In this document: piece by piece, positions 11,769-61,099 of the stretch
Numbering within the stretch: the stretch's first letter is position 1
Layout of the letters: every line of letters starts with the position of its first letter
Source of the DNA: Macrostomum lignano
Taxonomy: Eukaryota
Reading direction: 5' to 3'
Length of the DNA stretch: 64,000 nt
Assembly: GCA_002269645.1 (NCBI GenBank)
Contig: NIVC01002034.1
Span: 1 to 64,000 of the forward strand
Made by a program: the position numbers and the translations under genes
Notes under the pieces: model-generated
What the model was told of the DNA's origin: nothing
The model's database searches: none
The model's input: the letters and a program-made list of their open reading frames with translations, nothing else

Positions 11769-12016
11769 TCTGTAGCCTACTGGGCATTCACTGTGTACAC
11801 TGAACCCTATCACTTCACCGCGGCCCGCCACCCCTGGCCCCAACACGGGTTATTTGAATTGAATAGTGTCAGAAAATTTAAAGAAAGATTTTTCTTGAAT
11901 GCTGTGCTTTTTGTTTTCATGATTAAAGCAAGAAACTTATACCCCCGAACTCAGCGTTGCAAGCTCTTTCCAGCAATATAAGTCTCTTCTCTTAAAGTTT
12001 AAAACTCGTGGAACAG
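11769..12016 (+). repeat. ~250-bp direct repeat, copy 2 (right of RepHel)
   Basis: Matches 2499-2755. Confidence 0.85.
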
Positions 12017-13009
12017 TTGCCGTTTCTAATTTCCCAATTTCCCGACTGCTTGCCTGAGAGGCTCGCAATTTTGTACATTGAATTTCACTGCCAAGCTAAT
12101 ACACAGGGCCGATAATAAAAAAGTGAACCAATTGAATCAATTGATTGCGCAATATATTTCTGTGTTAGTCAGTATAAGTCTCAGTTAAAGTTAACAAAAA
12201 GTTTGCGCAATCTAATCAACCCTCCAATACAAAGCAACTGACCCCCTTCCTATACACAGCGCCAGTTAGAAGTCGAAACCCCCAACTTTATCTATTACGT
12301 CTCGCAAAACTGAGTACAATTTTTGCAGAAAGTTTAAAGTATGGAAATGGTTTTTTTTAATGCTGTGCTTTTTCTTTTTATATTTAAAGCATACAACTTA
12401 TATCCCCGAACTCAGCGTTGCAAGATCTTTCCAGCAATATAAGTCTCTCCTCTCAAAGTTTAAAACTCGAGCAACAGTTTGCGTTTGAAACTGTCTGATT
12501 TATAGCATTGAAGTATGGAGTGTACGTTCACTGCCTGCTTGCAAGTTGATGCATTGAATTTTAATGTCCAACAAATACACAGGGCTGCCCATTGAGAGGC
12601 AGGAAAACTTATCAGTAGCCATATCATTGCGCAATTATCTATACAGTCAGCCAGTAAGCCAGGGTCCAAGTGTACACACGCAGCCACTGAGAACGCTCCC
12701 ACCCCCACTGGAAAGAAAATACACTACAGAGATAGGGAAAAGTTGTGGCGCAATCACTAAAAATTCGTGCATTTTTTCAGCTCCAAGCAGAAAGAGGGGA
12801 CAAATAAGATTATCAAAGGTCAAGATTCAAGTTTTCTGCTTTTTTAGGGATCTTAACAATCGAAAATAAAATATTAAAATAGCCTATAGCCGACCTCGGA
12901 TAATTTCCAATCTTCCCATATAAGTTTCAACGCTGAGTTGCCACTATTCAAGGAGAAGTTGTCGAAATGACAGACAGACAGACAAACAACGCGTCAACTT
13001 TAGTATATA

Positions 13010-16000
13010 CGAGTGGAACTCCTCCTTCGGAGGAGAAAGGGGAAGAACTCCCATCACCGGAATTCTATTCCCTGAAATATCCATCAACTGAAATTCCATG
13101 TCTTTAACCCTATCTTCCAAATCGTCTCCAAATTCTTTACAAAATCTTTCAAAGACCATAGCTCAAAGACTCTCAAGTCTCTCATATCTCCTCTCTCCTC
13201 TCTCTCATCTCATCTCTACCCCTGCTCCCTTATTTATCTCTTCTCCCTCGTCTTTCGTCTGTACCTTCTCCTGTCTTCTGTCTCCTCTCTTCACTCTTAT
13301 CTCTCCCTCTTCTCTCCTCTCTCATATGTCATCTCTACTCACTTATCTATCGTCTCTCTTAACCCTCTCTCTCTCTTCTCTTTTCTCTTCTCTCTGCTCT
13401 CATTTCTCATATTTCATATACGCTCTGACACTACTTTCTTGTCTCCCATCTTTCTTCCTCCTTTTCACTATCCCCTGTCTCTTCTCTTCTCTCTTTTCTA
13501 TTCTCTCCATTCTCTCTTTTCTCCTTTCCTTGCTCCTTTCATCTCTCTCCTCTCTCCTCACTCTCTTCTCCTTTCGCTTCTCTCTCCTCTCTCTCCTCTC
13601 ATCTTTACTACCTTATTTATATCTTCTCCTAGTCTTTCGTCTGTACTCTCTCCTGTCTCCTCTCTCCCCTCCTCTCTCATCCCTCATCTCCTCATCTCAC
13701 TCTTTCTTTCTCCTCTACTCTCCCCTCTCTTCTATTGCCTCTGTACGCTCTTATCCCTCATCTATTCTCTCTCCTATCATCTCCAATCTGTCATGTCTAA
13801 TCTCTCCACTCAATTATACTCTGTTTTCTATCATCTCTTCTCTCTTCTCTTTTCAGTCTTCTCTTTACTCTCTTCTCTGACTGATTGAAGATGCCAAATC
13901 CATCAAGATCCTCTCCGCGAAGAAAAAATCCTGTCTGTGCAACTAAAAACCATCGAAATCCTCTCAGTGAAACTGGACTCCTTCGAAATCCTCTCCTTGA
14001 AACTTAAATCCATCAAAATTGTTTCCATAAAACAGAAATCAATCATAAATTATCTCCGCGAAACAGAAAGCCTCTCCGTGAAGCTGAACATGATCGAAAT
14101 CCTCTCCGTGAAACTGAACACCATGGAAATCCTTTCGTGAAACTGAACATCATCGAAATCCTCTCCACGAAACAGAAATCTTCTCCGTCAGAATTTAAAC
14201 ATTGAAATCGTCTCCGCTAAACTTGACTTAATCGAATTTTTTCCGTCAAACAACTCAACTCGCCAGATTCATTAGGGTTAGGGTTAGGGTTAGGGTTAGG
14301 GTTAGAACTACGCACAGCTTCGTGTTAAAAGGCACAGATAAAAATATTGAACTAATTGTATCAATTCATTGCGCAACCGATTTCACAGTCAGTCAGTATC
14401 AGCCTCAGGTAAAGTTAACAAAAACATTGCGCAATCTAAATCGACCCTCCAATACACAGCAGCAGTGAGAAGTTGAACCCTCCCCCCAACAATCTTTGCA
14501 GATTAAAGTACAATCTTTGCAGAAAGTTAAAGCTGTGCTTTTTCTTTTCATATTTAAAGCAAACAACTTATATCCCCGAACTCAGCGTTGCAAGATCTTG
14601 CCAGCAATATAAGTTTCTCCTCTCAAAGTTTAAAACTCGAGGAACAGTTAGCGTTTGAAACTGTCTGATTTATAGCATTGAAGTATCGAGTGTACGTTCA
14701 CTGCCTGCTTGAAAGTTGATGCATTGAATTTCAATGTCCAACAAATACACAGGACTGCCCATTGAAAGGCAGGAAAACTTATCAGTAGCCATATCATTGC
14801 GCAATTATCTATAAAGTCAGCCAGTGAGCCAGGGTCCAAGTGTACACACGCAGCCACTGAGAACGCTCCCACCCCCCACTGGAAAGAAAATACACTACAG
14901 AGATAGGGAAAAGTTGTGGCGCAATCACTAAAAATTCATGCATTTTTCAGCTCCAAGCAGAAAGAGGGGACAATTAAGATTATTAAAGGTCAAGACCGCC
15001 GTTTTCTGCTTTTTTGAGGATCTTAGAAATTAAAATTTCAGAATTAAAATAGCCTATACCGACCTCGGATAATTTCCAATCTTCCCATATAAGTTTCAAC
15101 GCTGAGTTGGCACTATTCAAGGAGGAGTTGTCGAAATGACACACAGACAGACAAACAACGCGTCAACTTTAGTATATATAGATAGACGAGTGGAACTCCT
15201 CCTTCGGAGGAGAAAGGGGAAGAACTCCCATCACCGGAATTCTATTCCCTGAAATATCCATCAACTGAAATTCCATGTCTTTAACCCTATCTTCCAAATC
15301 GTCTCCAAATTCTTTACAAAATCTTTCAAAGACCATAGCTCAAAGACTCTCAAGTCTCTCATATCTCCTCTCTCCTCTCTTTCATCTCATCTCTACCCCT
15401 GTTCCCTTATTTATCTCTTCTCCCTCGTCTTTCGTCTGTACCTTCTCCTGTCTTCTGTCTCCTCTCTTCACTCTTATCTCTCCCTCTTCTCTCCTCTCTC
15501 ATATGTCATCTCTACTCACTTATCTATCGTCTCTCTTAACCCTCTCTCTCTCTTCTCTTTTCTCTTCTCTCTGCTCTCATTTCTCATATTTCATATACGC
15601 TCTGACACTACTTTCTTGTCTCCCATCTTTCTTCCTCCTTTTCACTATCCCCTGTCTCTTCTCTTCTCTCTTTTCTATTCTCTCCATTCTCTCTTTTCTC
15701 CTTTCCTTGCTCCTTTCATCTCTCTCCTCTCTCCTCACTCTCTTCTCCTTTCGCTTCTCTCTCCTCTCTCTCCTCTCATCTTTACTACCTTATTTATATC
15801 TTCTCCCTAGTCTTTCGTCTGTACTCTCTCCTGTCTCCTCTCTCCACTCCTCTCTCATCCCTCATCTCCTCATCTCCTCATCTCACTCTTTCTTTCTCCT
15901 CTACTCTCCCCTCTCTTCTATTGCCTCTGTACGCTCTTATCCCTCATCTATTCTCTCTCCTATCATCTCCAATCTGTCATGTCTAATCTCTCCACTCAAT

Positions 16001-19000
16001 TTTACTCTGTTTTCTATCATCTCTTCTCTCTTCTCTTTTCAGTCTTCTCTTTACTCTCTTCTCTGACTGATTGAAGATGCCAAATCCATCAAAATCCTCT
16101 CCGCGAAGCAAAAATCCTGTCTGTGCAACTAAAAACCATCGAAATCCTCTCAGTGAAACTGGACTCCTTCGAAATCCTCTCCTTGAAACCTGAATCCATC
16201 AAAATTGTTTCCATAAAACAGAAATCAATCATAAATTATCTCAGCGAAACAGAAAGCCTCTCCGTGAAGCTGAACATGATCGAAATCCTCTCCGTGAAAC
16301 TGAACACCATGGAAATCCTTTCGTGAAACTGAACATCATCGAAATCCTCTCCACGAAACAGAAATCTTCTCCGTCAGAATTTAAACATTGAAATCGTCTC
16401 CGCTAAACTTGACTTAATCGAATTTTTCCGTCAAACAACTCAACTCGCCAGATTCATTAGGGTTAGGGTTAGGGTTAGGGTTAGAACTACGCACAGCTTC
16501 GTGTTAAAAGGCACAGATAAAAATATTGAACTAATTGAATCAATTCATTGCGCAACCGATTTCACAGTCAGTCAGTATCAGCCTCAGGTAAAGTTAACAA
16601 AAGATTGCGCAATCTAAATCAACCCTCCAATCCACAGCTGTAGTGAGAAGTTGAACCCTCCCCCCAACTTTATCTATTACGTCTTGCAAAACTGAGTACA
16701 ATATTTGCAAAAAGTTAAAAGTATGGAAATAGTTTTCCAAATGCTGTGCTTTTTCTTTTCATAGTTAAAGCAAACAACTTATATCCCCGAACTCAGCGTT
16801 GCAAGATCTTGCCAGCAATATAAGTTTCTCCTCTCAAAGTTTAAAACTCGAGGAACAGTTAGCGTTTGAAACTGTCTGATTTATAGCATTGAAGTATCGA
16901 GTGTACGTTCACTGCCTGCTTGAAAGTTGATGCATTGAATTTCAATGTCCAACAAATACACAGGACTGCCCATTGAAAGGCAGGAAAACTTATCAGTAGC
17001 CATATCATTGCGCAATTATCTATAAAGTCAGCCAGTGAGCCAGGGTCCAAGTGTACACACGCAGCCACTGAGAACGCTCCCACCCCCCACTGGAAAGAAA
17101 ATACACTACAGAGATAGGGAAAAGTTGTGGCGCAATCACTAAAAATTCATGCATTTTTCAGCTCCAAGCAGAAAGAGGGGACAATTAAGATTATTAAAGG
17201 TCAAGACCGCCGTTTTCTGCTTTTTTGAGGATCTTAGAAATTAAAATTTCAGAATTAAAATAGCCTATACCGACCTCGGATAATTTCCAATCTTCCCATA
17301 TAAGTTTCAACGCTGAGTTGGCACTATTCAAGGAGGAGTTGTCGAAATGACACACAGACAGACAAACAACGCGTCAACTTTAGTATATACGAGTGGAACT
17401 CCTCCTTCGGAGGAGAAAGGGGAAGAACTCCCATCACCGGAATTCTATTCCCTGAAATATCCATCAACTGAAATTCCATGTCTTTAACCCTATCTTCCAA
17501 ATCGTCTCCAAATTCTTTACAAAATCTTTCAAAGACCATAGCTCAAAGACTCTCAAGTCTCTCATATCTACTCTCTCCTCTCTTCGCTATTATCGTGACT
17601 CGCTTCTCTCTCCTCTCTCTCATCTCATCTCTACCCCTACTCTCTTATTTATCTCTACTCCCTCGTCTTTCGTTTGTACCCTCTCCTGTCTCTTGTCTCC
17701 TCTCTTCTCTCATATCTCTCCTCTTCACTTCTGTCTCCTGTCTCCTCTCTTATCTCTTCCTCTTCTCTCCTCTCTCATATGTCATCTCTCCTTACTTATC
17801 TATCGTCTCTCTTAACCCTCTCTGTCTCTCTTCTCTTTTCTCTCCTATCTGCTTCTCATTTCTCATATCTCATATACGCTCTCACACTCTACTTTCTTGT
17901 CTCCTATCTTTCTTTCCTCCTTACCACTATCCCCTGTCTCTTCTCTTCTCTCTTTTCTATCCTCTCCATTCTCTCTTCTCTCCTCTCCTTTCTCTTTTCA
18001 TCTTCTCCCCTCTCTTCTCTAATCTCTAATCTCTTCTCTCTTATGTTCTCACTCATCTCTTTTCTCATCGCATCTCTCATCTCTCCTCTCCTCACTACTT
18101 TCCTTCTCTTAACTCTCTTATCTCTGATCTTTCATCTCTCTCCTCTCTCCTCTCTTTCTTCTCCTTTCGCTTCTCTCTCCTCTCTCTCCTCTCATCTCTA
18201 CTACCTTATTTATATCTTCTCCCTGGTCTTTCTTCTGTACTCTCTCCTGTCTCCTTTCTCCCTCTTTTCTCCTCTCTTCTCTCTCCCCTCCTCTCTCATT
18301 TCTCATCCCCCATCTCACTTTTTCGTTCTCCTCTACTCTCCCCTCTCTTCTATTTCCTCTGTATGCTCTTATCCCTCATCTATTCTCTCTCCTATAATCT
18401 CTCTTTTCTCCCTTTGCTATCTCATATCGCCCCTCTCATCTCCTCTCTCCTTCGTCCCGCCTTACTCCCCTCTTCTCTCCCATCTGTCATGTCTAATCTC
18501 TCCACTCATTTCTACTCTGTTGTCTATCATCTCATCTCTTTTCTTTTTCATTCTTCTCTTTACTCTCTTCTCTGACTGATTGAAGATGCCAAATCCATCA
18601 AGATCCTCTCCGCGAAGCAGCAATCTTGTCTGTGCAACTGAAAACCATCGAAATCCTCTTCGTGAAACTGAAAACCATCGAAATGATCTCTTTAAAACTG
18701 GACTCAATTGAAATTTTCTCCATCAAAAAGAATAAAATATCAGGATTCATTGGTTAGGGTTATTGTTAGGGTTAGGGTCAGGGTTAAAGCTACACACAGC
18801 TGCGTGTCCAAATAAAAAATTGAACCAATTGAATCAATTGATTACGCAACCGATTTCTCAGTCAGTCAGTATCAGTCTCAGTTAAAGTTAAAAAAGATTG
18901 CGCAATCTAAATCAACCCTCCAATCCACAGCAGTAGTGAGAAGTTGAACCCTCCCCCCAACTTTATCTATTACGTCTTGCAAAACTGAGTACAATATTTG

Positions 19001-22000
19001 CAAAAAGTTAAAAGTATGGAAATAGTTTTTCAAATGCTGTGCTTTTTCTTTTCATATTTAAAGCAAACAATTTATATCCCGAACTCAGCGTTGCAAGATC
19101 TTTCCAGAAATATAAGTCTCTTCTCTCAAAGTTTAAAACTCGAGGAACAGTTAGCGTTTGAAACTGTCTGATTTATAGCATTGAAGTTTGGAGTGTACGT
19201 TCACTGCCTGCTTGCAAGTTGATGCATTGAATTTCAATGTCCAACAAATACACAGGGCTGCCCATTGAGAGGCAGGAAAACTTATCAGTAGCCATATCAT
19301 TGCGCAATTATCTATACAGTCAGCCAGTAAGCCAGGGTCCAAGTGTACACACGCAGCCACTGAGAACGCTCCCACCCCCCACTGGAAAGAAAATACACTA
19401 CAGAGATAGGGAAAGTTGTGGCGCAATCACTAAAAATTCGTGCATTTTTTCAGCTCCAAGCAGAAAGAGGGGACAATTAAGATTATCAAAGGTCAAGACC
19501 GCCGTTTTCTGCTTTTTTGAGGATCTTAGAAATTAAAATTTCAGAATTAAAATAGCCTATAGCCGACCTCGGATAATTTCCAATCTTCCCATATAAGTTT
19601 CAACGCTGAGTTGGCACTATTCAAAGAGGAGTTGTCGAAATGACAGACAGACAGACAAACAACGCGTCAACTTTAGTATATGTAGATAGATAGATAGAGA
19701 CGAGACGAGGCCAACTCCTCCGATGGAGGAGAAAGGGGAAGAACTCCCATCACCGGAATTCCATTCCCCGAAACCCCTTAGCTGAATCCCATGACCCGAA
19801 TCCCATCATCAAAACATCTCCAAATCCATCAAACTCCTCTCCGCGAAACAGAAATCCTCTCCGTGAAACTGAAAACCATCGAAATCCTCTTCGTGAAACT
19901 GAAAACCATCGAAATGATCTCTTTAAAACTGGACTCAATTGAAATTTTCTCCATCAAAAAGAATAAAATATCAGGATTCATTGGTTAGGGTTATTGTTAG
20001 GGTTAGGGTCAGGGTTAAAGCTACACACAGCTGCGTGTCCAAATAAAAAATTGAACCAATTGAATCAATTGATTACGCAACCGATTTCTCAGTCAGTCAG
20101 TATCAGTCTCAGTTAAAGTTAAAAAAGATTGCGCAATCTAAATCAACCCTCCAATCCACAGCAGTAGTGAGAAGTTGAACCCTCCCCCCAACTTTATCTA
20201 TTACGTCTTGCAAAACTGAGTACAATATTTGCAAAAAGTTAAAAGTATGGAAATAGTTTTTCAAATGCTGTGCTTTTTCTTTTCATATTTAAAGCAAACA
20301 ATTTATATCCCCGAACTCAGCGTTGCAAGATCTTTCCAGAAATATAAGTCTCTTCTCTCAAAGTTTAAAACTCGAGGAACAGTTAGCGTTTGAAACTGTC
20401 TGATTTATAGCATTGAAGTTTGGAGTGTACGTTCACTGCCTGCTTGCAAGTTGATGCATTGAATTTCAATGTCCAACAAATACACAGGGCTGCCCATTGA
20501 GAGGCAGGAAAACTTATCAGTAGCCATATCATTGCGCAATTATCTATACAGTCAGCCAGTAAGCCAGGGTCCAAGTGTACACACGCAGCCACTGAGAACG
20601 CTCCCACCCCCCACTGGAAAGAAAATACACTACAGAGATAGGGAAAGTTGTGGCGCAATCACTAAAAATTCGTGCATTTTTCAGCTCCAAGCAGAAAGAG
20701 GGGACAATTAAGATTATCAAAGGTCAAGACCGCCGTTTTCTGCTTTTTGAGGATCTTAGAAATTAAAATTTCAGAATTAAAATAGCCTATAGCCGACCTC
20801 GGATAATTTCCAATCTTCCCATATAAGTTTCAACGCTGAGTTGGCACTATTCAAAGAGGAGTTGTCGAAATGACAGACAGACAGACAAACAACGCGTCAA
20901 CTTTAGTATATGTAGATAGATAGATAGAGACGAGACGAGGCCAACTCCTCCGATGGAGGAGAAAGGGGAAGAACTCCCATCACCGGAATTCCATTCCCGA
21001 AACCCCTTAGCTGAATCCCATGACCCGAATCCCATCATCAAAACATCTCCAAATCCATCAAACTCCTCTCCGCGAAACAGAAATCCTCTCCGTGAAACTG
21101 AAAACCATCGAAATCCTCTCCGTAAAACTGGACTCAATCGAAATTTTCTCCGTCAAAAAGAACTTAACTCTCAGGGTTCAGTGCCATCAGTGGTTAGGGT
21201 TAGGGTTAGAGCTGCACAGAGCTGCGGGTTGAAAGGCGCCGATAAGAATATTGAATTAATTGAATCAATTTATTGCGCAACCGATTTCTCATTTAGTCAG
21301 TATCAGGCTCAGGTAAAGTTAACAAAATGATTGCGCAATCTAATTCAACCCTCCAATACACAGTGGCAGTAAGAAGTTGAACCCTCCCCATAACTTTATC
21401 TACGCTCGTATTACGTCTAGCGAAACTAAGTGCAATCTTTGCAGAAAGTTAAAAGTTCGGAAATAGTTTTTTAATGCTGTCCTTTTTGTTTTCATATTTA
21501 AAGCAAACAACTTATACCTCCAAACTCAGTGTTGCAAGCTCTTTCCGGCAATATAAGTCTCTTCTCTTAAAGTTTAGAACTCGAGGAGCAGTTAACGTTT
21601 ACAACTTTCCGATTTAAAGCATTGAAATATCGAGTGTACGCTCACTGCCTGTTAAAGCGACTCGCAAGTTATGCAATGAATTTCACTGTCCTACATACAA
21701 TACACAGGGCTTCATATTGAAAGGCAGAACAACTTAACAGTAGCCAAATCATTGCGCAATCATCTATACAGTGCGCCAGTGAGCCAGGGTCCAATTGTAC
21801 ACACGCAGCCACTTAGAACGCCCCATCCCCCAACTGGAGAGAAATGCACTGGCGAGATAGGAGAAAGTTATGGCGCAAGCAATCAAAATTGATGCATTTT
21901 ATCAGCTCCGAGCAGAAAGAGGGGACAAATAAGATTATCAAAGGTCAAGATTGCAGTTTTCTGCTTTTTTAGGGATCTTAAAATGTGAAAATAAAAAATT

Positions 22001-23353
22001 GAAATAGCCCACTGCAGTCCCCGGAAAATTTGCAGTTTACCCATATAAGTTTCAACGCTGACTTGCAAGTATTCTAGGAGGAGTTATGCAACACACAAAC
22101 AAACAGACAAACAAACAAACAAACAAACAATCATCGCACCAACTTTAGTATTAGGATTTAGTATTAGGACGAGGCCAACTCCTCCTCTGGAGGAGAAAGG
22201 GGAAGAATTCCCATCACCGGAATTCCATTCCCTGAAATCCATCAGCTGAATCCTATCATCCAACCCCTCTCCTCGAAACTGAACACCATCGAAATCCTCT
22301 CCGCGGAACAGAAATCCTCTCCGTGAAACTGGACTCAATTAAAATTTTCTCCGTCAAACAGAACTAAACTCAGGATTCAGTGGCTAGGGTTAGGGTTAGA
22401 GCTGCACAGAGCTGCGGGTTGAAAGGCGCTGATAAGAATATTGAATTAATTGAATCAATTTATTGCGCAACCGATTTCTCATTCAGTCAGTATCAGGCTC
22501 AGGTAAAGTGAACAAAATGATTGCGCAATCTAAATCAACCCTCCAATACACAGTGGCAGCAAGAAGTTGAACCCTCCCCCCAACTTTATCTATTACGTCT
22601 CGGGAAACTAAGTGCAATCTTTGCAGAAAGTTAAAAGTTCGGAAATAGTTTTTGAATGCTGTCCTTTTTGTTTTCATATTTAAAGCAAACAACTTATACC
22701 TCTAAACTCAGTGTTGCAAGCTCTTTCCGGCAATATAAGTCTCTTCTCTTTAAGTTTAGAACTCGAAGAGCAGTTAGCGTTTACAACTTTCCGATTTAAA
22801 GCATTGAAATATCGAGTGTACGCTCACCGCCTGTTAAAGCGACTCGCGAGTTATGCAATGAATTTCACTCTCCCACAATACACAGGCTTCATGTTGAAAG
22901 GCAGAACAACATAACAGTAGCCAAATCATTGCGCAATCATCTATACAGTGCGCCAGTGAGCCAGGGTCCAAGTGTACACACGCAGCCACTTAGAACGCCC
23001 CATCCCCCAACTGGAGAGAAATGCACTGGCGAGATAGGAGAAAGTTATGGCGCAATCAATCAAAATTGATGCATTTTATCAGCTCCGAGCAGAAAGAGGG
23101 GACAAATAAGATTATCAAAGGTCAAGATTGCAGTTTTCTGCTTTTTTAGGGATCTTAACAATCGAAAATAAAATATTAAAATAGCCTATAGCCCGACTTG
23201 GAAAATTTGCAGTTTCCCCATATAAGTTTCGACGCTGACTTGCCAGTATTCTAGGAGAAAAATTGCAACACACAGACAAACAGACAAACAGACAAACAGA
23301 CAAACAGACAAACAGACAAACAGACAAACATCGCACCACTTTTAGTATTAAGA
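13010..23353 (-). repeat. Tandem array of six non-autonomous Helitron units
   Basis: Units: 13010-15186, 15187-17389, 17390-19705, 19706-20935, 20936-22169, 22170-~23353 (about 2177, 2203, 2316, 1230, 1234 and 1184 bp). Each junction reads hairpin-CTCG|(TC)...ATACTAAAG-(TGTY)n on the minus strand. Units also carry a ~30-bp subrepeat (gaaatcctctccgtgaaact core) and TTAGGG tracts. Confidence 0.88.
14272..14305 (+). repeat. Interstitial telomere-type repeat (TTAGGG)5 inside a Helitron unit
   Basis: Five perfect TTAGGG plus TTAG. Homologous tracts at 16457-16484 (4 copies) and shorter or degenerate ones near 11720, 18755, 19985, 21193 and 22385. Confidence 0.9.
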
Positions 23354-23642
23354 GAGAAGAAGAGATGTATTCTGTAGTCCTTCAACATTATTTTGGTTCG
23401 AGTGCCGCCGCTCTAATCTTGAGGTGCCAATGTTTAGAGTTCATAGTCCCCAGTCAAATTGCGGCAGTCACTTGTCGAAGGCCCCAAGGCCAAGACCCTA
23501 GGCCCCCTAATACCATGCAGGATGTTGGGGACTGAGAGTCCCCTTTCGCGACATTAAATAATTAGTAAATGATCGGAGGCTGAGCTTTACTGGCATGAAT
23601 TCAAGGTAGTAGAGCACCGGCCGGGTCACATACACGTAGCCC

Positions 23643-24097
23643 CACAGATACTAGAATAACCAGATGGGCCACTCAGCACATTTGCGTGTAAGCTACTTTC
23701 AGTTCAGTAGCAAGTTAAACAGAAGCATTTTAATGTATTTTTAAAGCCAAGGCTCATTTATTGGCTCTTACCCCCCTCCCCCACTTAAACCTCCAACCGC
23801 GCCTTTCCACCCCCCCTCGCCCCGCCCCACCCTAATTTTTATTGCCTTTCTCGGGATTCCAGCCTAAAGCGGCCATGTATATTTAAAGTGGACTGGCTAA
23901 TGTACATTACTGCCGAACCAATTAGCAAGCTGTTTACGCCTGCAAGCTTGGGCTTCTAAACTTATCAAAGTCATTTCAGCTGCCTTTATTTTTATAAAAT
24001 AGCTTATATATACTTCCTTGCTACTGAACTGAAAGTAGAAAGCTGTTTTACTAAGTATATATGCCTGAGTGGCCATCTAGTTATTTTAGTATCTGTG
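23643..24097. mobile_element. 455-bp non-autonomous DNA transposon (P-element-like MITE)
   Basis: Imperfect ~70-bp TIRs, CACAGATACTA...TAGTATCTGTG. Exact 8-bp TSD CGTAGCCC at 23635-23642 and 24098-24105. A CANRG terminus with an 8-bp TSD fits the P superfamily; hAT is not excluded. Confidence 0.75.
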
Positions 24098-24380
24098 CGT
24101 AGCCCTAGCAACATTTAAACCGTCACCAATTCGCCACTCAAATACATGTCGTATACACTGTAATATATGAGCCGTACCTTTTTGTAATCCAGTTTGCCAA
24201 AACAATACGTACATGTAGAACCAACTTCGGGCACTTCCGGCACTGCGAGTTCACTCGATTCAGTTGAAGGGTAGGCAGAGGCAGAGAGCCAGCATTCTGC
24301 CTTAAACTGACTGACTGAATTCATTCTCATAGCATCGCTCTATGCAAATAAGCCTGTCAGCCTCGTCAGCTGTTATCAAA

Positions 24381-25180
24381 CCAACAGCTCCGCTGCATTC
24401 CGCCGCTCCCCCAACAGCTCCGCTGCTTTCCGCCGCTCCCCCAACAGCTCCGCTGCTTTCCGCCGCTCCCCCCTAACAGCTCCGCTGCTTTCCGCCGCTC
24501 CCCCAACAGCTCCGCTGCTTTCCGCCGCTCCCCCAACAGCTCTGCTGCTTTCCGCTGCTTCCACCAACAGCTCCGCTGCATTCCGCCGCTCCCCCCAACA
24601 GCTCCGCTGCTTTCCGCCGCTCCCCCAACAGCTCCGCTGCTTTCCGCCGCTCCCCCCTAACAGCTCCACTGCTTTCCGCCGCTCCCCCAACAGCTCCGCT
24701 GCTTTCCGCCGCTCCCCCAACAGCTCCGCTGCTTTCCGCCGCTCCCCCAACAGCTCCGCGCTGCTTTCCGCTGCTTCCACCAACAGCTCCGCTGCTTTCC
24801 GCCGCTCCCCCCTAACAGCTCCACTGCTTTCCGCCGCTCCCCCAACAGCTCCGCTGCTTTCCGCCGCTCCCCCAACAGCTCCGCTGCTTTCCGCCGCTCC
24901 CCCAACAGCTCCGCTGCTTTCCGCTGCTTCCACCAACAGCTCCGCTGCATTCCGCCGCTCCCCCCAACAGCTCCGCTGCTTTCCGCCGCTCCCCCAACAG
25001 CTCCGCTGCTTTCCGCCGCTCCCCCCTAACAGCTCCACTGCTTTCCGCCGCTCCCCCAACAGCTCCGCTGCTTTCCGCTGCTTCCACCAACAGCTCCGCT
25101 GCTTTCCGCCGCTCCCCTAACAGCTCCGCTGCTTTCCGCCGCTCCCCCCAACAGCTCCGCTGCTTTCCGCGGCTCCCCCC
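24381..25180. repeat. 30-bp GC-rich minisatellite (~26 copies)
   Basis: Unit CCCCCAACAGCTCCGCTGCTTTCCGCCGCT with variants. Confidence 0.95.
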
Positions 25181-25765
25181 GCATGCCTCCATGCCTTCAG
25201 ATCTAGATTCCTTGGTTCTATCCGTGATCCAAGATCCAACTATTGATATAAAATATCTCTATCAATCAAACACTAAGTTTGCTGCTCAATCTGCTTTCCA
25301 TATACCTTGCTTGAGGAGCATATGGATCAGTGAAGTCTAGCCAGTGTCGTTTAGATCGTCAAAAGCAATACAGCATGGCATTACAATGTATTTCAAGCAA
25401 TTCAAACGGCTATTACGCTAGTAGCATTCAACAAGATTGGTTTCGGCGCCACGCAATGTAAAATTTTTGGTACAATGTTACGTCAGTAGATACGAAGTAC
25501 TATAATAATTGTAATGCAGAACAGCGGCAGTAGCTAAATAATGACACCCGAACTTGAATTTTGCGGTAATATTACACGCAATAAATAGCATTGATATCGG
25601 AAGGCAATAAGTAAAACAGTAATAAGTATAAGCTATTGAATCGCGAGTACGCGATATGCACCATCACAGTTCGCAGCTAGGCAATTTTTTTTGGAAGAGA
25701 AAATAACAACAAGGAACACCCAGTATTGTTGAGTTAAAAGTAACAGTTCACAATGGGAGGCGGTG

Positions 25766-56357: not shown

Positions 56358-58812
56358 CACCTTTTCACTTTCAATTTTGAACAAAGTCCAGTTCTAAAAA
56401 AACTAGCAGAAATTCAATTCAGACACTTTAGACTGGGGCAACGCTTACGGAAAATCAATAAAAACAAACCCCAGTTCAAAACAGACAAAGCCGTTTCAAT
56501 TCAAACACTACTGGTTTTGCCTGACTAAACCTTGCTTCGGTGGCGGTGAGGGACACCAACAGAACCAGATATCAATTATAAAAACAGAAATTCAACATAG
56601 GATTTTTGTCTGTGGCAAAACCTTTACGGGAGAGAGACCGATAAGAAAATCAATACAGACAAAATGCTGATCAAAAGAAACAGAAGCACTTCAATAAAAA
56701 CTGACACAACTGTCTATGGTCGAATCTTGTATATATATTTCACTAGGTGGAGCATCAAGAAGTTCAAAAACAACAACAGAGTACGCTGCCAGTTCGCAAA
56801 AGCAGCGTCAGATGGCGCGCTTCGAAGCTTGGGCGCGAACAAAAGCCGCACTGCCGGCAGAGTCCGGGGCGCCGGCGTCAGCCAGCAGACAGTCGACGTA
56901 GCGCCGAGTCCTCGCCTGTCCCCGCCGGTAGGGTGCCTGCAACGTAAGTAGCAGCACCTCCTGCACCGGCTCCGGACAGTAGGCCTCGGCGCGGATGACG
57001 TGGCCTGCCAGCTGGAGTCGCCGACGGCGCAGCAGATCGCTAGGACGGGCCAGGCCGGCGCGATGATAGAGCGCCGTGTTGGTGACTCGCTCGTTGCCGA
57101 TCTTGAAGGCGGCGCGCAGCAGGCCAGCGTGCGCCGCGTCGACTTGAGCCTCGAGCGAGTCTGTCAGCGTCCAGGTCTCGGCGTTGTATAACAGGACGGT
57201 CTCGATCACCGCCTGGAACAGCGCCGCCCTCTGGCGGTCCGGTAGGGCCTCTGACTGCAGGACTGACCTTATAGAACGAAAGGCAGCCCAGTCAAGTCCT
57301 CGGCGACGCCGCAGATCCTCGCGGACGTCGGGAACCAGACCGCCGAGGTAGACGAACTGCTGACATCTTGGAAGCTCACTCGCCTGTCCGTCAGCGCCTC
57401 GGCAGAAGATTGCAGCCTCGGTGTTGTCCGGCACGCATAGCACGACGGTCTTCTGCGTGTTGACCACCAGGCCGACGCTCGCCGCAACGGTAACCAGCCT
57501 ATCCAGCTGTCGTTGGGCGCCCTCGACGGTCAAGGACAGCAGGGCGAGGTCATCAGCGTAGCCAAGCACGCTGAGCCGTCTCTCCGGTTGGCGTCGACCC
57601 ACGCGTCGCCGCAGCAGGAAGCCGTCGTCGTTGGAAGGCAGAGCAGTCCGTAGCACCCAGTCAAGCACCAGAATAAATAGGAACGGCGCTAGCGTATCTC
57701 CCTGGAGCACCTCGGAGGATGTCTCGAAGAAATCCGATAGGCCGTCCGGTGTTGAGACAGCAGCCGTCGTGCCGTGGTACAGCGCCATGACAGCAGAAAT
57801 CAGCAGCTCTGGCACGTTGTACGCACGGCAACACCTCTGGGAGCGCGTCCCTCACGACCGAGTCGAAAGCCTTCCTGAAATCGACGAAGATCAGGATCAG
57901 GGTCAACTGGCGGATGCGCGCCTCCTCGATGACTCGTCGAAGAGCCAGGATCTGCGTCACTGTGCCGCGATGCGGCCGGAATCCGTTCTGCTCAGGTCGC
58001 AGGTACGGGTCCAGCACAGGCTGTAACCGCGATAGCAGCATGCGGTTGAACAGCTTCGCGGCGCAGGAGTGTAGGCAGATGCCTCGATGCTCCTCGAGCT
58101 TGGTGGTGCATCAAGAAGTTCAAAAGAAACAGTTCCCTTTCAAAACAGACATGGCAACTAACGAAAAAGACTCAGTTTACCTGCCTGGTAGTGAATAGAG
58201 CTCCATTTAACTTCTTAGCTCGCTGACGGTTTTATCCGTTACTCGTGGTTTCATTGGGCAGTTATGACAAAGGTTGGCATTTAACTGCTTGATCGTAATG
58301 AGAGGATCGCTTCCATCTGAGCTTCAATGAATGCTTGCATTTCTTTATCCCACTTTCTCTGTTTTGCACCTCCTTTTGGTTGCTTCTCTGGCCTTCCAGA
58401 TCATACAATCGTGTACGCCGTTGTTCTTTTTACGCCCAACTGGTGTGCCAAATTCTCAAAGTCTTCTTCTCTTTCAAATGCTCCGATATTCCTAGCTCTA
58501 TCGGCATTGCTAATCCTATCGTTTGTCCGGTGTCGCTGACCATTGAGCTCACCAACTTGATCGTCGACCATTGCGACACTCTTCGCCATCCTCCTCCAGC
58601 AGGTCAACGGAGTCTTCTTCGTTAGTCGCCATGTCTGTTTTGAAAGGGAACTGTTTCTTTTGAACTTCTTGATGCTCCACCTAGTGAAATATATATACAA
58701 GATTCGACCATAGACAGTTGTGTCAGTTTTTATTGAAGTGCTTCTGTCTCTTTTGATCAGCATTTTGTCTGTATTGAATTTCTTCTCGGTCTCTCTCCCG
58801 TAGGGTTTTACC
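56358..58812. mobile_element. Two inverted partial copies of a second Tc1/IS630-like element, one interrupted by RTE copy 2
   Basis: TA-CACCTTTT start at 56356 resembles the 54155 TIR. 56617-56769 plus 58126-58190 is inverted-repeated at ~58600-58812. The minus copy encodes EDFENLAHQLGVKRTTAYTIV. Confidence 0.6.
56770..58107 (-). mobile_element. 5'-truncated RTE-clade LINE, copy 2
   Basis: Nearly identical to copy 1. 335-aa RT/C-terminal ORF at 56808-57815. (GTT)n tail. TSD GCATCAAGAAGTTCAAAA at 56752-56769 and 58108-58125. Confidence 0.92.
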
Positions 58813-59568
58813 ACTGGGATTCTTCTTGTAATGTCCAGTCGGAAAGACCACAGAGTGAAAGATTATCTACAAGCATGTATGTCTGTGTCCTCTGGGAGTT
58901 TAGAACTTTCTGTTACAGATGTAAAAGTGTTTCATCTTAATCCGCAACATCCCCAAAAGTGTTCAAAAAAGCATGGCTTCGAAAAGACAGGTTGTTGGGC
59001 AAAATCGACCGAGGCGTCGATGAGGACAGTGTCAAAAAAAGACAGTGTACGTCTGCTCGCAGTGTCCTGGCGTCCCGTCACTTTGTCTTGTGAGTTGCTT
59101 TGGCACGTGGTATAATAATTAAAGAACCATTATCATCTTCTAAGGTGCTAGAAAGCTTTGAATGCTTTTGAAATGTGAATGAAACTTTCCCGCTATGTTT
59201 GCTGGTTTGTTACTGCTGTTACTGTTAATAGCTACATGTACGAGCCATCTTTGCAAAGTTTGTTTTTTGCTTTACTTCTATTTTTGGTCGAGTTCGACCC
59301 ATAGCCGACTGGAACGGTGGGTAGAGAATTTGTGCGCTTGCCATAGATATTTTGAACCGACTGCGCTGGGGAGTTGTAAGTGGTCGAAAACGACCTTCCC
59401 GACTTCTTAAGGTTAAAGCGGCCTTTTAGAATTCTGCCAATTATTTTCAAGAGTAACGTCCTTGTTGGTGAATTGTTAAGTAGTCCTTGCACAGAGGTTT
59501 CAGCGCAAAAACTACACAGAAGAGGCCCTAACGATCACCGCTCCACACTGCTTGGTGTAAACGCTTTC

Positions 59569-60187
59569 TTATCGGCCCGATTCCGGGCATTTCGGCGACT
59601 CGGACCGGGGTCGCACCTGTAGCTCGCTTATTTTCCGTAGGAATTCCGCGATGAGTTCGGCATCCTCCGCACGCCTCCTCTCTCACCCAGCTACTGTCCA
59701 GAACGTCGAACCCGGCCCATTGCAGACGAAACTCTCGTCCCTCCTCAGTTTCACGCACTGCCAACACATCCAAAACTTTAAACTTCTCCTCCTGGCCACG
59801 CTCCGCTACGTTTTCCTCGTCCGTCACTACATAACCAATTTCACTATTCTCGGTTTCGCTCGTCGACTCCCAACCTATCTTCTTCCTGCTTGCGCCTCAC
59901 TTCGTCCAGTAGATCATCTAGCATCTCTTCGTCGTCCAGCATCTTCTCCGCAAAGTCCAGTAGCTTATTGGGCTCCAAAATCATTCCTCCGAACCAATCA
60001 TATAGCTTCCGGCGGATTGGGCAGGACAGAGCCGGTACGCTTCCTCGCACTCCTGGGACTGCTGCTTGAGGATGCTGTCGCCTCTCTTGTTAGGATGGTA
60101 CTCCCGAGCTCGACGGTAGAATGCTTTCCGAATTTCTGAGGTCGTCGCTTCTTTGGTAACACCCAGTCGCTCATACAGATTCGACAT
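59569..60187 (-). CDS. J-domain plus chromodomain coding cassette (one ~205-aa fusion or two small ORFs; frameshifted)
   Basis: NLYERLGV..ATTSEIRKAFYRRAREYHPNK...EEAY..LSCPIRRKLYD (DnaJ fold, HPN instead of HPD). Then FKVLDVLAVR..GREFRLQWAGF..SSWVREE...ELIAEF (chromodomain). Confidence 0.7.
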
Positions 60188-60290
60188 CCTAAAACCGTTT
60201 AATAAAACTTCTGATACCAGTATCGAATGTTTTTATACGCTTGCTTTCTTCGCCGATATCTCTATACTACGCGTCGTGCGCCTGCCCGGG

Positions 60291-61099
60291 TCAGAAGTAA
60301 ACCGGCTGTCCGAACCGGTCCGGGGGTCTCCGTCGTCGTCGCGGTCGGATACCCTCAGGCGGAGGCTCGAGTTCGATCTCCACTTCCTGGTGTGGTTCAA
60401 TCACTTCAGGCTCCGGTGGCTCCAGCTCAGCTATCTTGTCCTCGTCTGATGGCGTACGCGTCTGGCCACTTTGAGAAGGCGTCTTGCACAGTAAGGATGT
60501 ACAAGTTACCCCTTTTGATTCAGGGAAGCGGCCCTACCACACGTCAATCATCACGATGTCGAAGGGCGCTGAGCTTGGAAGCAGCTCTAATGGACCCACC
60601 GGCTTCCTTCTTGTCTTCGCTTCTGTGCAGCTCATGCAGGCCCGAACATGCACTTTCACGTCCCGTGCCAGGCCCGGTCTCCAAAACAACCACAGAGCTT
60701 TCTACTCTACCACCACTAGCACCTGCATGGCATTCCTCGATCACCTCCATCATTTTCTTTGGTAGCAGCAGCCTTTCCGGAAGTCTCCCCGGGGAGCTAC
60801 AGATCAGGACACCGTCGCCATTAACTTAGATTTCAGCTTGTCTCTCGCAGATTTTCCGGGCCGTCGGTGAGATAGTCCGTAACTGCTCTTCAGAGGGCTC
60901 TCCCTCGCTGAGTTCCAGCAGCCCGATCGCAGCCTGCACGTTTTCATCTTCGCATTGCACTTGCTTCATGTCCTCGGTCGACCACCTTCGCAGATCGATG
61001 GCGTTGGCTTCCAGCCGGTCCGGTGCACAACCCGGACATTCCTTGCTCCCTTGATGTCGCCACCGTGGATTCCTCGACAATGCATCAGCGTTGGGCACT
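60291..61099 (-). pseudogene. Second Ty3/Gypsy pol remnant (RH-INT linker, integrase Zn finger, C-terminal tail)
   Basis: NADALSR, ECHAG...C..C, PFDIVMID, DAFSKWP, then RPRRRRRPPDRFG and a stop at 60291. Most of the catalytic core is deleted. Confidence 0.75.

Follow-up and report, generated by a model that had tools for sequence, protein, structure and literature searches.

A J-domain ORF3 behind pol in a clade of Ty3/Gypsy retrotransposons of Macrostomum lignano

Does a J-domain and chromodomain cassette lying behind a Gypsy pol sequence belong to the retrotransposon, and what would such a protein do for it? The cassette was found on the minus strand of contig NIVC01002034.1 of Macrostomum lignano, within the 64,000 nucleotides that were analysed (the window). 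The features are as follows.

60445..61092, minus strand: remains of Gypsy pol with a frameshift; the zinc-binding region and the first part of the integrase core are kept, the rest of the core is missing
60291..60533, minus strand: frame of the pol C-terminal tail, ending in RRPPDRFGQPVYF stop, common to sister copies
60188..60290, minus strand: spacer of 103 nt, ending in acceptor-like TTTTAG one base 5' of the ATG
59990..60187, minus strand: ORF3 J-domain with HPN (HPD in sisters), placed by Pfam and sister alignment, break near 60030
59790..59989, minus strand: helical extension of ORF3 followed by the acidic linker; a deletion near 59870 breaks the frame
59625..59789, minus strand: HP1/Swi6-like chromodomain of ORF3 with cage residues F/W/F; the frame breaks near 59660
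59490..59624, minus strand: start only of the C-terminal helical domain of ORF3, interrupted near 59610, then truncated
59415..59489, no strand: end of an unrelated multi-copy inverted-repeat element, which cuts ORF3 off at ~59490

The pol remnant matched residues 785-1007 of family-A pol at 44% (tblastn, E 5e-43) and Pfam Integrase_H2C2 (E 1e-4). The original prediction had placed the cassette directly behind a Gypsy integrase. The pol tail does adjoin it, but the integrase is a remnant in which the zinc-binding part and the start of the core are joined to the tail, with most of the core gone. The same type of tail closed pol in families A-G. As had been predicted, the ATG (60187) follows the pol-tail stop (60291) by 103 nt with TTTTAG just before it, and the linker frame is open into the chromodomain. 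Pfam DnaJ was matched at 59984-60187 (E 4e-12) and Pfam Chromo at 59531-59896 (E 2.4e-4, under the curated cut-off), and the HPN tripeptide lies at 60097. Alignment with sister copies showed that the frame is broken by short deletions near 60030, 59870, 59660 and 59610, in addition to the truncation at ~59490, and not by the three single-base errors that had been proposed. Neither the window nor the 10 kb that follow it gave a match to family-A LTR, gag or RT. The stretch is a dead, decayed ORF3 copy of a Gypsy LTR retrotransposon family.

The inverted-repeat element that truncates this copy gave about 35 matches, each of ~70 nt and many of them paired in inverted orientation. Upstream, beyond 61100, lies what we take from its motifs to be a non-LTR element encoding RT and RNase H. 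An RT-like non-LTR fragment occurs twice, at 43628-44962 and in inverted orientation at 56765-58100, and its two copies share 99-100% identity across ~1.3 kb. Positions 12000-25300 hold tandem CT-rich units of 1.2-2.3 kb, within which lie 30-nt repeats; a tandem array with a 30-nt unit comes after them.

Relatives were searched in the 764 Mb M. lignano assembly. Pieces 82-90% identical to the window copy were found on four contigs (C255, C102, C1935 and C455) and form with it subfamily A2. C255 carried an HPD J-domain running into the linker in a single frame, C102 likewise read from the J side into the linker, and C1935 and C455 continued in frame from the linker through the chromodomain and 130 further residues. 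The three J-bearing copies (C255, C455 and C1935) had the same pol tail upstream, and all had HPD. In C1935 and C455 (L003-L006) the J-domain and the linker are separated by an AT-rich insert of 680 nt. Its reading as an intron was not supported: the insert does not begin with GT and is absent from all A1 copies, the window, C255 and C102. C1935 and C455 are internally deleted hybrids, with A1-like gag, PR, RT and 3' end and an A2-type pol tail and 5' part of ORF3. Over its last 46 codons C1935 shares 98% identity with A1, suggesting recombination. The cassette fragment of C255 (L002:2300-3300) adjoins ORFs that look to us Polinton/Maverick-like; the one ORF tested there had no Pfam match.

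A young sister family, A1, found in protein searches and ~60% identical, carried the intact gene. An ORF3 of 326-328 aa was intact in 17 of 28 A1 loci and was ordered as HPD J-domain, acidic linker, HP1-like chromodomain and basic five-helix domain. The ~205-aa product originally proposed was thus ~120 aa too short, and the C-terminal domain of ~110 aa had escaped notice. The pol tail stood directly upstream of ORF3 in 25 loci and an LTR directly downstream in 27 of the 28. The five complete A1 elements that were read all had LTR pairs 99.3-99.8% identical and 4-bp target duplications; TG…CA LTR ends, PBS and PPT were present, as in Ty3/Gypsy LTR elements. In family A gag is followed by pol ordered as PR-RT-RH-IN. 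RT preceded IN and IN preceded ORF3 in every full locus mapped, the order being taken from the pol translation, and Pfam PR, RT and RH were matched on one clade member. The expectation of a multi-copy J and chromodomain gene in the Gypsy ORF3 position, inside LTRs and linked to pol, with one intact frame, was thus borne out: copies were neither single nor unlinked, intact copies kept the fusion, and HMMs supported both domains.

The number of A1 loci overstates the copy number because the assembly is redundant (accessible text of PMC12801592); after removal of duplicates and unreadable loci, 18 distinct family-A insertion sites were left of 26 loci. The intact A1 protein is identical to BOX15_Mlig001265g11 of M. 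lignano. The gene models P0002, P0126 and P0127, annotated as 'J domain-containing' or 'hypothetical protein', are transposon ORFs, some of them fused to pol. The host J-protein count of M. lignano is likely inflated by such models.

Intact ORF3 matched Pfam DnaJ with E 5e-16, and the predicted J fold superposed on solved J-domains with an rmsd of 0.9-2 Å (Foldseek). HPD was found in all 24 readable A1 loci (4 of 28 were not readable) and in 15 of 16 element J-domains, the sequences being only 23-31% identical between families. The HPN noticed in the window is real but private to that copy. No DnaJ_C or zinc-finger domain typical of class A/B Hsp40 was matched in Pfam, and the C-terminal domain was modelled as five helices. 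With its predicted four-helix J fold and HPD, A1 ORF3 would belong to the class C J-domain proteins.

The chromodomain matched Pfam Chromo with E 1.4e-12 in A1 and 8e-7 in C1935, and its PDB sequence matches were led by Swi6 and HP1. The aromatic cage had been described as intact. It reads F/W/F in the window subfamily A2 but Y/W/V in the active A1, and Y/W/L in P0003; the V or L at the third position may weaken methyl-lysine binding. The best non-element matches in the genome were HP1-like genes (38-39%), and family A likely acquired its chromodomain by capture from host HP1. We take the tails of these host genes to be chromoshadow-like. No chromoshadow domain was matched in ORF3 by Pfam or PDB sequence beyond the chromodomain, the C-terminal domain being all-helical. 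In the full-length ORF3 model the chromodomain was placed at low confidence.

The helical domain of ~110 aa was predicted as five helices (pLDDT 86, pTM 0.79). Foldseek gave no match at E<=0.001 in PDB or BFVD, the best VIA hit had Z 8.0 and stood among unrelated helical bundles, and Pfam and ESM Atlas gave nothing usable; this absence of a structural match does not establish a new fold. Net charge was +9 to +15 in the helical domain and -10 to -52 in the linker in all eight proteins. There was no sign of an env protein: the only Pfam matches above cut-off were DnaJ and Chromo, the model showed soluble helical domains, and a crude hydrophobicity count of the ORF3 proteins gave 11-14 of 19.

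The same layout was found in families B, C, D and E, with an HPD J-domain, acidic linker and helical domain and without the chromodomain. Families F and G have the J and helical core plus a TatD-like domain (E 9e-5 to 1e-6), and C150 and C222 retain only the TatD-like part (L202:6199-7872, L206:5953-7691 and L200:5871-6413). Family F lacks HPD, yet its ORF3 frame of ~560-570 aa is open in about 11 copies. The conserved core of ORF3, common to seven families, is thus the J-domain with the helical domain. The chromodomain, taken originally as part of the core of the cassette, is restricted to family A.

In an RT tree of 30 rows, the ORF3 families all fell within one clade of 23 rows (support 99/98). 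This clade also holds members with interrupted, partial or no detected ORF3 (C1827, C870, C252, C150 and C222) and a subgroup (C23, C382, C1405 and C4067) in which neither a J-domain nor a helical domain was detected; the J matches in C1500 and C2311 are fragments of 23 residues. The sister group contains Mlig-id38, a published Gmr1/Osvaldo element, while CsRN1 and Mag lie outside; the grouping with genomic Mlig-id38 copies had support 97/96, with three references only and a long-branch warning. The J-domain tree was of low resolution, and a single origin gave p-AU 0.37. Primer-binding sites just after the 5' LTR differ between families A-E though ORF3 is common to them; those of B, C and one E are presumably of tRNA-Lys type and those of A and D of other types.

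A helical-domain profile searched against 1.84 billion proteins gave 10 matches: two M. lignano pol-ORF3 fusion models, P0003 (76% to A1, with chromodomain), five diverged proteins of other assemblies and two artefacts. Three of the five diverged proteins have an HPD J-domain, a fourth has one via its cluster mate P0135, and one is partial; since these match the profile, the J and helical core exists outside this assembly. The two artefacts, P0131 and P0134, were rejected as repeat-protein noise. Metagenome scans gave no match for P0133 and returned 80 loci with ordinary J-domains, none with the helical domain. In the M. lignano genome, as far as sampled, all 63 helical-domain matches lay in ORF3 families and no host parent gene of the domain appeared.

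Selection between sister families was estimated by Nei-Gojobori. Between A1 and the window subfamily A2, the chromodomain and the first part of the helical domain each gave a dN/dS of 0.20, and five other comparisons (B, C and E) gave 0.09-0.23, three comparisons being saturated. These values clearly indicate purifying selection on ORF3 between families.

As for expression, 7 of 9 family representatives (4 of 6 when independent families are counted) have an AG 0-1 nt ahead of the ORF3 ATG, compared with 97 of 488 background ATGs, so the acceptor-like site first noticed in the window is conserved. The remaining two representatives have TTGCAG within 20 nt of the ATG. GTAAG lies 170-228 nt behind a TATA-like box in the LTRs of all five families examined, a pattern noticed post hoc. 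ORF3s typically come from spliced messages (accessible text of PMC5408684), and M. lignano trans-splices about 30% of its genes (accessible text of PMC8629364). We infer that ORF3 would be translated from a spliced subgenomic RNA, made either by joining the LTR donor to the AG ahead of the start codon or by SL trans-splicing. Contigs of four presumed RNA runs covered A1 in full, ORF3 included (30 of 30 bins in each run). No donor-to-acceptor joint was seen for A1 or family C in contigs of presumed RNA runs, and contigs of this kind cannot exclude one. Run X7 covered 30 of 30 bins of family A and 11 of 30 of family C; it gives only a weak hint of transcription because it was chosen for holding A.

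Both LTRs of all four family-C elements carry 33 of 35 letters of the M. lignano spliced-leader exon given in the accessible text of PMC8629364. This SL-like stretch (L122:946-981 in G000:C108, and also in L181-L183) lies just behind AATAAA and 47 nt before the GTAAG donor. It was absent from sister C2 loci and from the LTRs of A, B, D and E, and it had a depth of 10^3-10^5 with adapters in front in four runs. Short family-C joints from it, with 20-22 letters on either side, were dismissed as artefacts arising from other transcripts that bear the SL. A leader encoded by the element itself could give family-C RNAs the appearance of SL trans-splicing.

Several known systems resemble these elements in part. 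As in the LTR elements of bdelloid rotifers, a third gene with a host-derived domain and modular make-up stands behind pol in an invertebrate Ty3/Gypsy element (accessible text of PMC5408684). The non-env cargo there is a DEDDy exonuclease or a GDSL esterase, whereas in M. lignano it is a J-domain and helical domain with chromodomain or TatD-like add-ons and shows clear purifying selection between families; the term 'DnaJ' is absent from the accessible text of that paper. Chromoviruses and some further Ty3/Gypsy elements likewise carry a chromodomain 3' of the integrase core, C-terminal to integrase (accessible text of PMC13524379). In family A, by contrast, pol stops 99-103 nt before the ORF3 ATG, and the chromodomain, closest to host HP1, starts ~150 aa into this separate ORF, between the J and helical domains, so that there is no fusion to integrase. 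The RT of the ORF3 families, moreover, groups with the Gmr1/Osvaldo reference.

The nearest published RT was that of Mlig-id38 (53%, compared with 40% for CsRN1 and 36% for Mag). Mlig-id38, a heat-induced Gmr1/Osvaldo element (accessible text of PMC12801592), shares the host and the PR-RT-RH-IN order. It is ~5.9 kb long with ~340-nt LTRs, an HSE and no ORF3, whereas the ORF3 families are 8.5-10 kb with LTRs of 815-970 nt. A heat-shock link was considered and rejected, as no canonical HSE occurs in 13 LTR rows of families A-E and these are not Mlig-id38. A term search of the accessible main text of PMC12801592 gave no 'DnaJ', 'J-domain', 'chromo' or 'ORF'. No J-domain ORF3 of an LTR retrotransposon was found in the literature searched, which did not extend to Repbase, Dfam, subscription journals, bioRxiv supplements or the M. 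lignano LTR classification of 2020 to which PMC12801592 refers. The J-domain ORF3 is apparently an unpublished, new type of cargo in a known position.

Because HPD is kept in nearly all element J-domains, ORF3 is probably a working Hsp70 co-chaperone. We further infer that it may serve as an Hsp70 adaptor that counters silencing on element chromatin, a reading to which we give somewhat less than an even chance. It is preferred because the add-ons and the charge point to chromatin or nucleic acid and because host J-proteins sit in chromatin-reader complexes. The J-domain would stimulate host Hsp70, the basic helical domain would bind nucleic acid or a client, and in family A the chromodomain would add a methyl-H3K9 address. 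Hsp70 would thereby be brought to chromatin at or near the element, and its remodelling of a repressive complex would loosen host silencing.

Precedents for such J-proteins are SILENZIO with MBD5/6, which ties Hsp70 to a chromatin reader (PMC8616336), DNAJs with PICKLE (bioRxiv 10.64898/2026.09.10.750567) and Mas5 in RNAi heterochromatin (PMC5985592), each as described in the accessible part of its source. In the two Arabidopsis cases the J-domain recruits Hsp70 to a complex directed by a mark reader, as proposed here, but reader and J-domain are separate host chains, while ORF3 is one transposon-encoded chain; no homology was found outside the J-domain. The cited host J-proteins promote rather than oppose silencing or compaction, which counts against the chromatin adaptor, as does the clade subgroup lacking both J and helical domains. 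Since six of seven families have no chromodomain, the core function does not depend on chromatin reading, and the open frame of family F without HPD indicates that Hsp70 stimulation is dispensable there. VANC21 of VANDAL21 is a transposon-encoded anti-silencing factor (accessible text of PMC8616336). Both VANC21 and polyomavirus T antigen are functional analogies only, as no sequence or fold link to ORF3 tested positive. The J-domain of T antigen uses Hsc70 to dismantle a host repressor. The fuller version, in which a modular Hsp70 adaptor with a bolt-on HP1-derived chromodomain or TatD-like nuclease fold strips repressors off silenced element chromatin, is doubtful, and equally doubtful is that it would be a T-antigen-like strategy not described for retrotransposons.

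A rather unlikely alternative is that ORF3 is a particle or RNP chaperone, bringing Hsp70 to the Gag, Pol and RNA complex of the element for assembly, reverse transcription or uncoating, the chromodomain being a late and minor addition. The conserved core, old and clade-wide, is indeed a J-domain with a basic helical domain and no chromatin reader, and hepadnaviral polymerase and several viruses depend on Hsp40/Hsp70. However, purifying selection is as strong on the chromodomain as on the core (dN/dS 0.20), the long acidic linker and HP1-like module suit a nuclear role better, and clade members without ORF3 have young full-length copies.

Less likely still is a tether in trans, in which ORF3 would link integrase to methyl-H3K9 chromatin in place of the chromovirus integrase chromodomain; integration targeting had been suggested originally. 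The HP1/Swi6-type chromodomain fits this, as does a pol that ends without one in the ORF3 families. Insertion flanks were compared at 18 family-A and 23 B and C sites. Four of 26 A loci had been dropped without a found LTR end and four as duplicate sites, and six of 30 B/C loci had short flanks and one was a duplicate. Tandem-repeat cover in the first 500 nt of the 3' flank was higher in A than in B and C (p 0.034, uncorrected), but this value would fail correction and the five other measures of six showed no difference (p 0.40-0.78); the interspersed-repeat measure is a proxy only. The flanks of A1 insertions resemble those of chromodomain-less families, which counts against strong chromatin targeting. 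Moreover, most families have no chromodomain, the A1 cage is incomplete, and tethering needs no J-domain.

A decoy in which a dead J-domain binds or titrates Hsp70 is very improbable: the HPN of the window copy and the intact HPD-less frame of family F speak for it, but HPN is confined to a multiply broken, dead copy, so the idea fails, and HPD in three J-bearing sisters, in every readable A1 locus and in all but one element J-domain refutes it for family A. That ORF3 is a captured host gene or processed pseudogene useless to the element has hardly any probability, although retroelements do capture host sequence and bdelloid ORF3s show no clear departure from neutrality within a genome (accessible text of PMC5408684); it is refuted by dN/dS of 0.09-0.23 at saturated or near-saturated synonymous sites, unless overlapping constraints keep the frames, and is opposed by the fixed position in seven families and the want of a host parent gene, all sampled helical-domain matches being in ORF3 families.

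Apart from env, the accessory genes of animal LTR retrotransposons are almost uncharacterised. ORF3, kept by selection in at least seven families, defines an unnamed domain of ~110 aa, and several M. lignano database entries listed as 'J-domain genes' belong to transposons. Since intact young copies exist in a transgenic model animal amenable to RNAi, it is directly testable whether retrotransposons steer the Hsp70 machinery, and also whether heterochromatin marks are read by an element gene separate from integrase.
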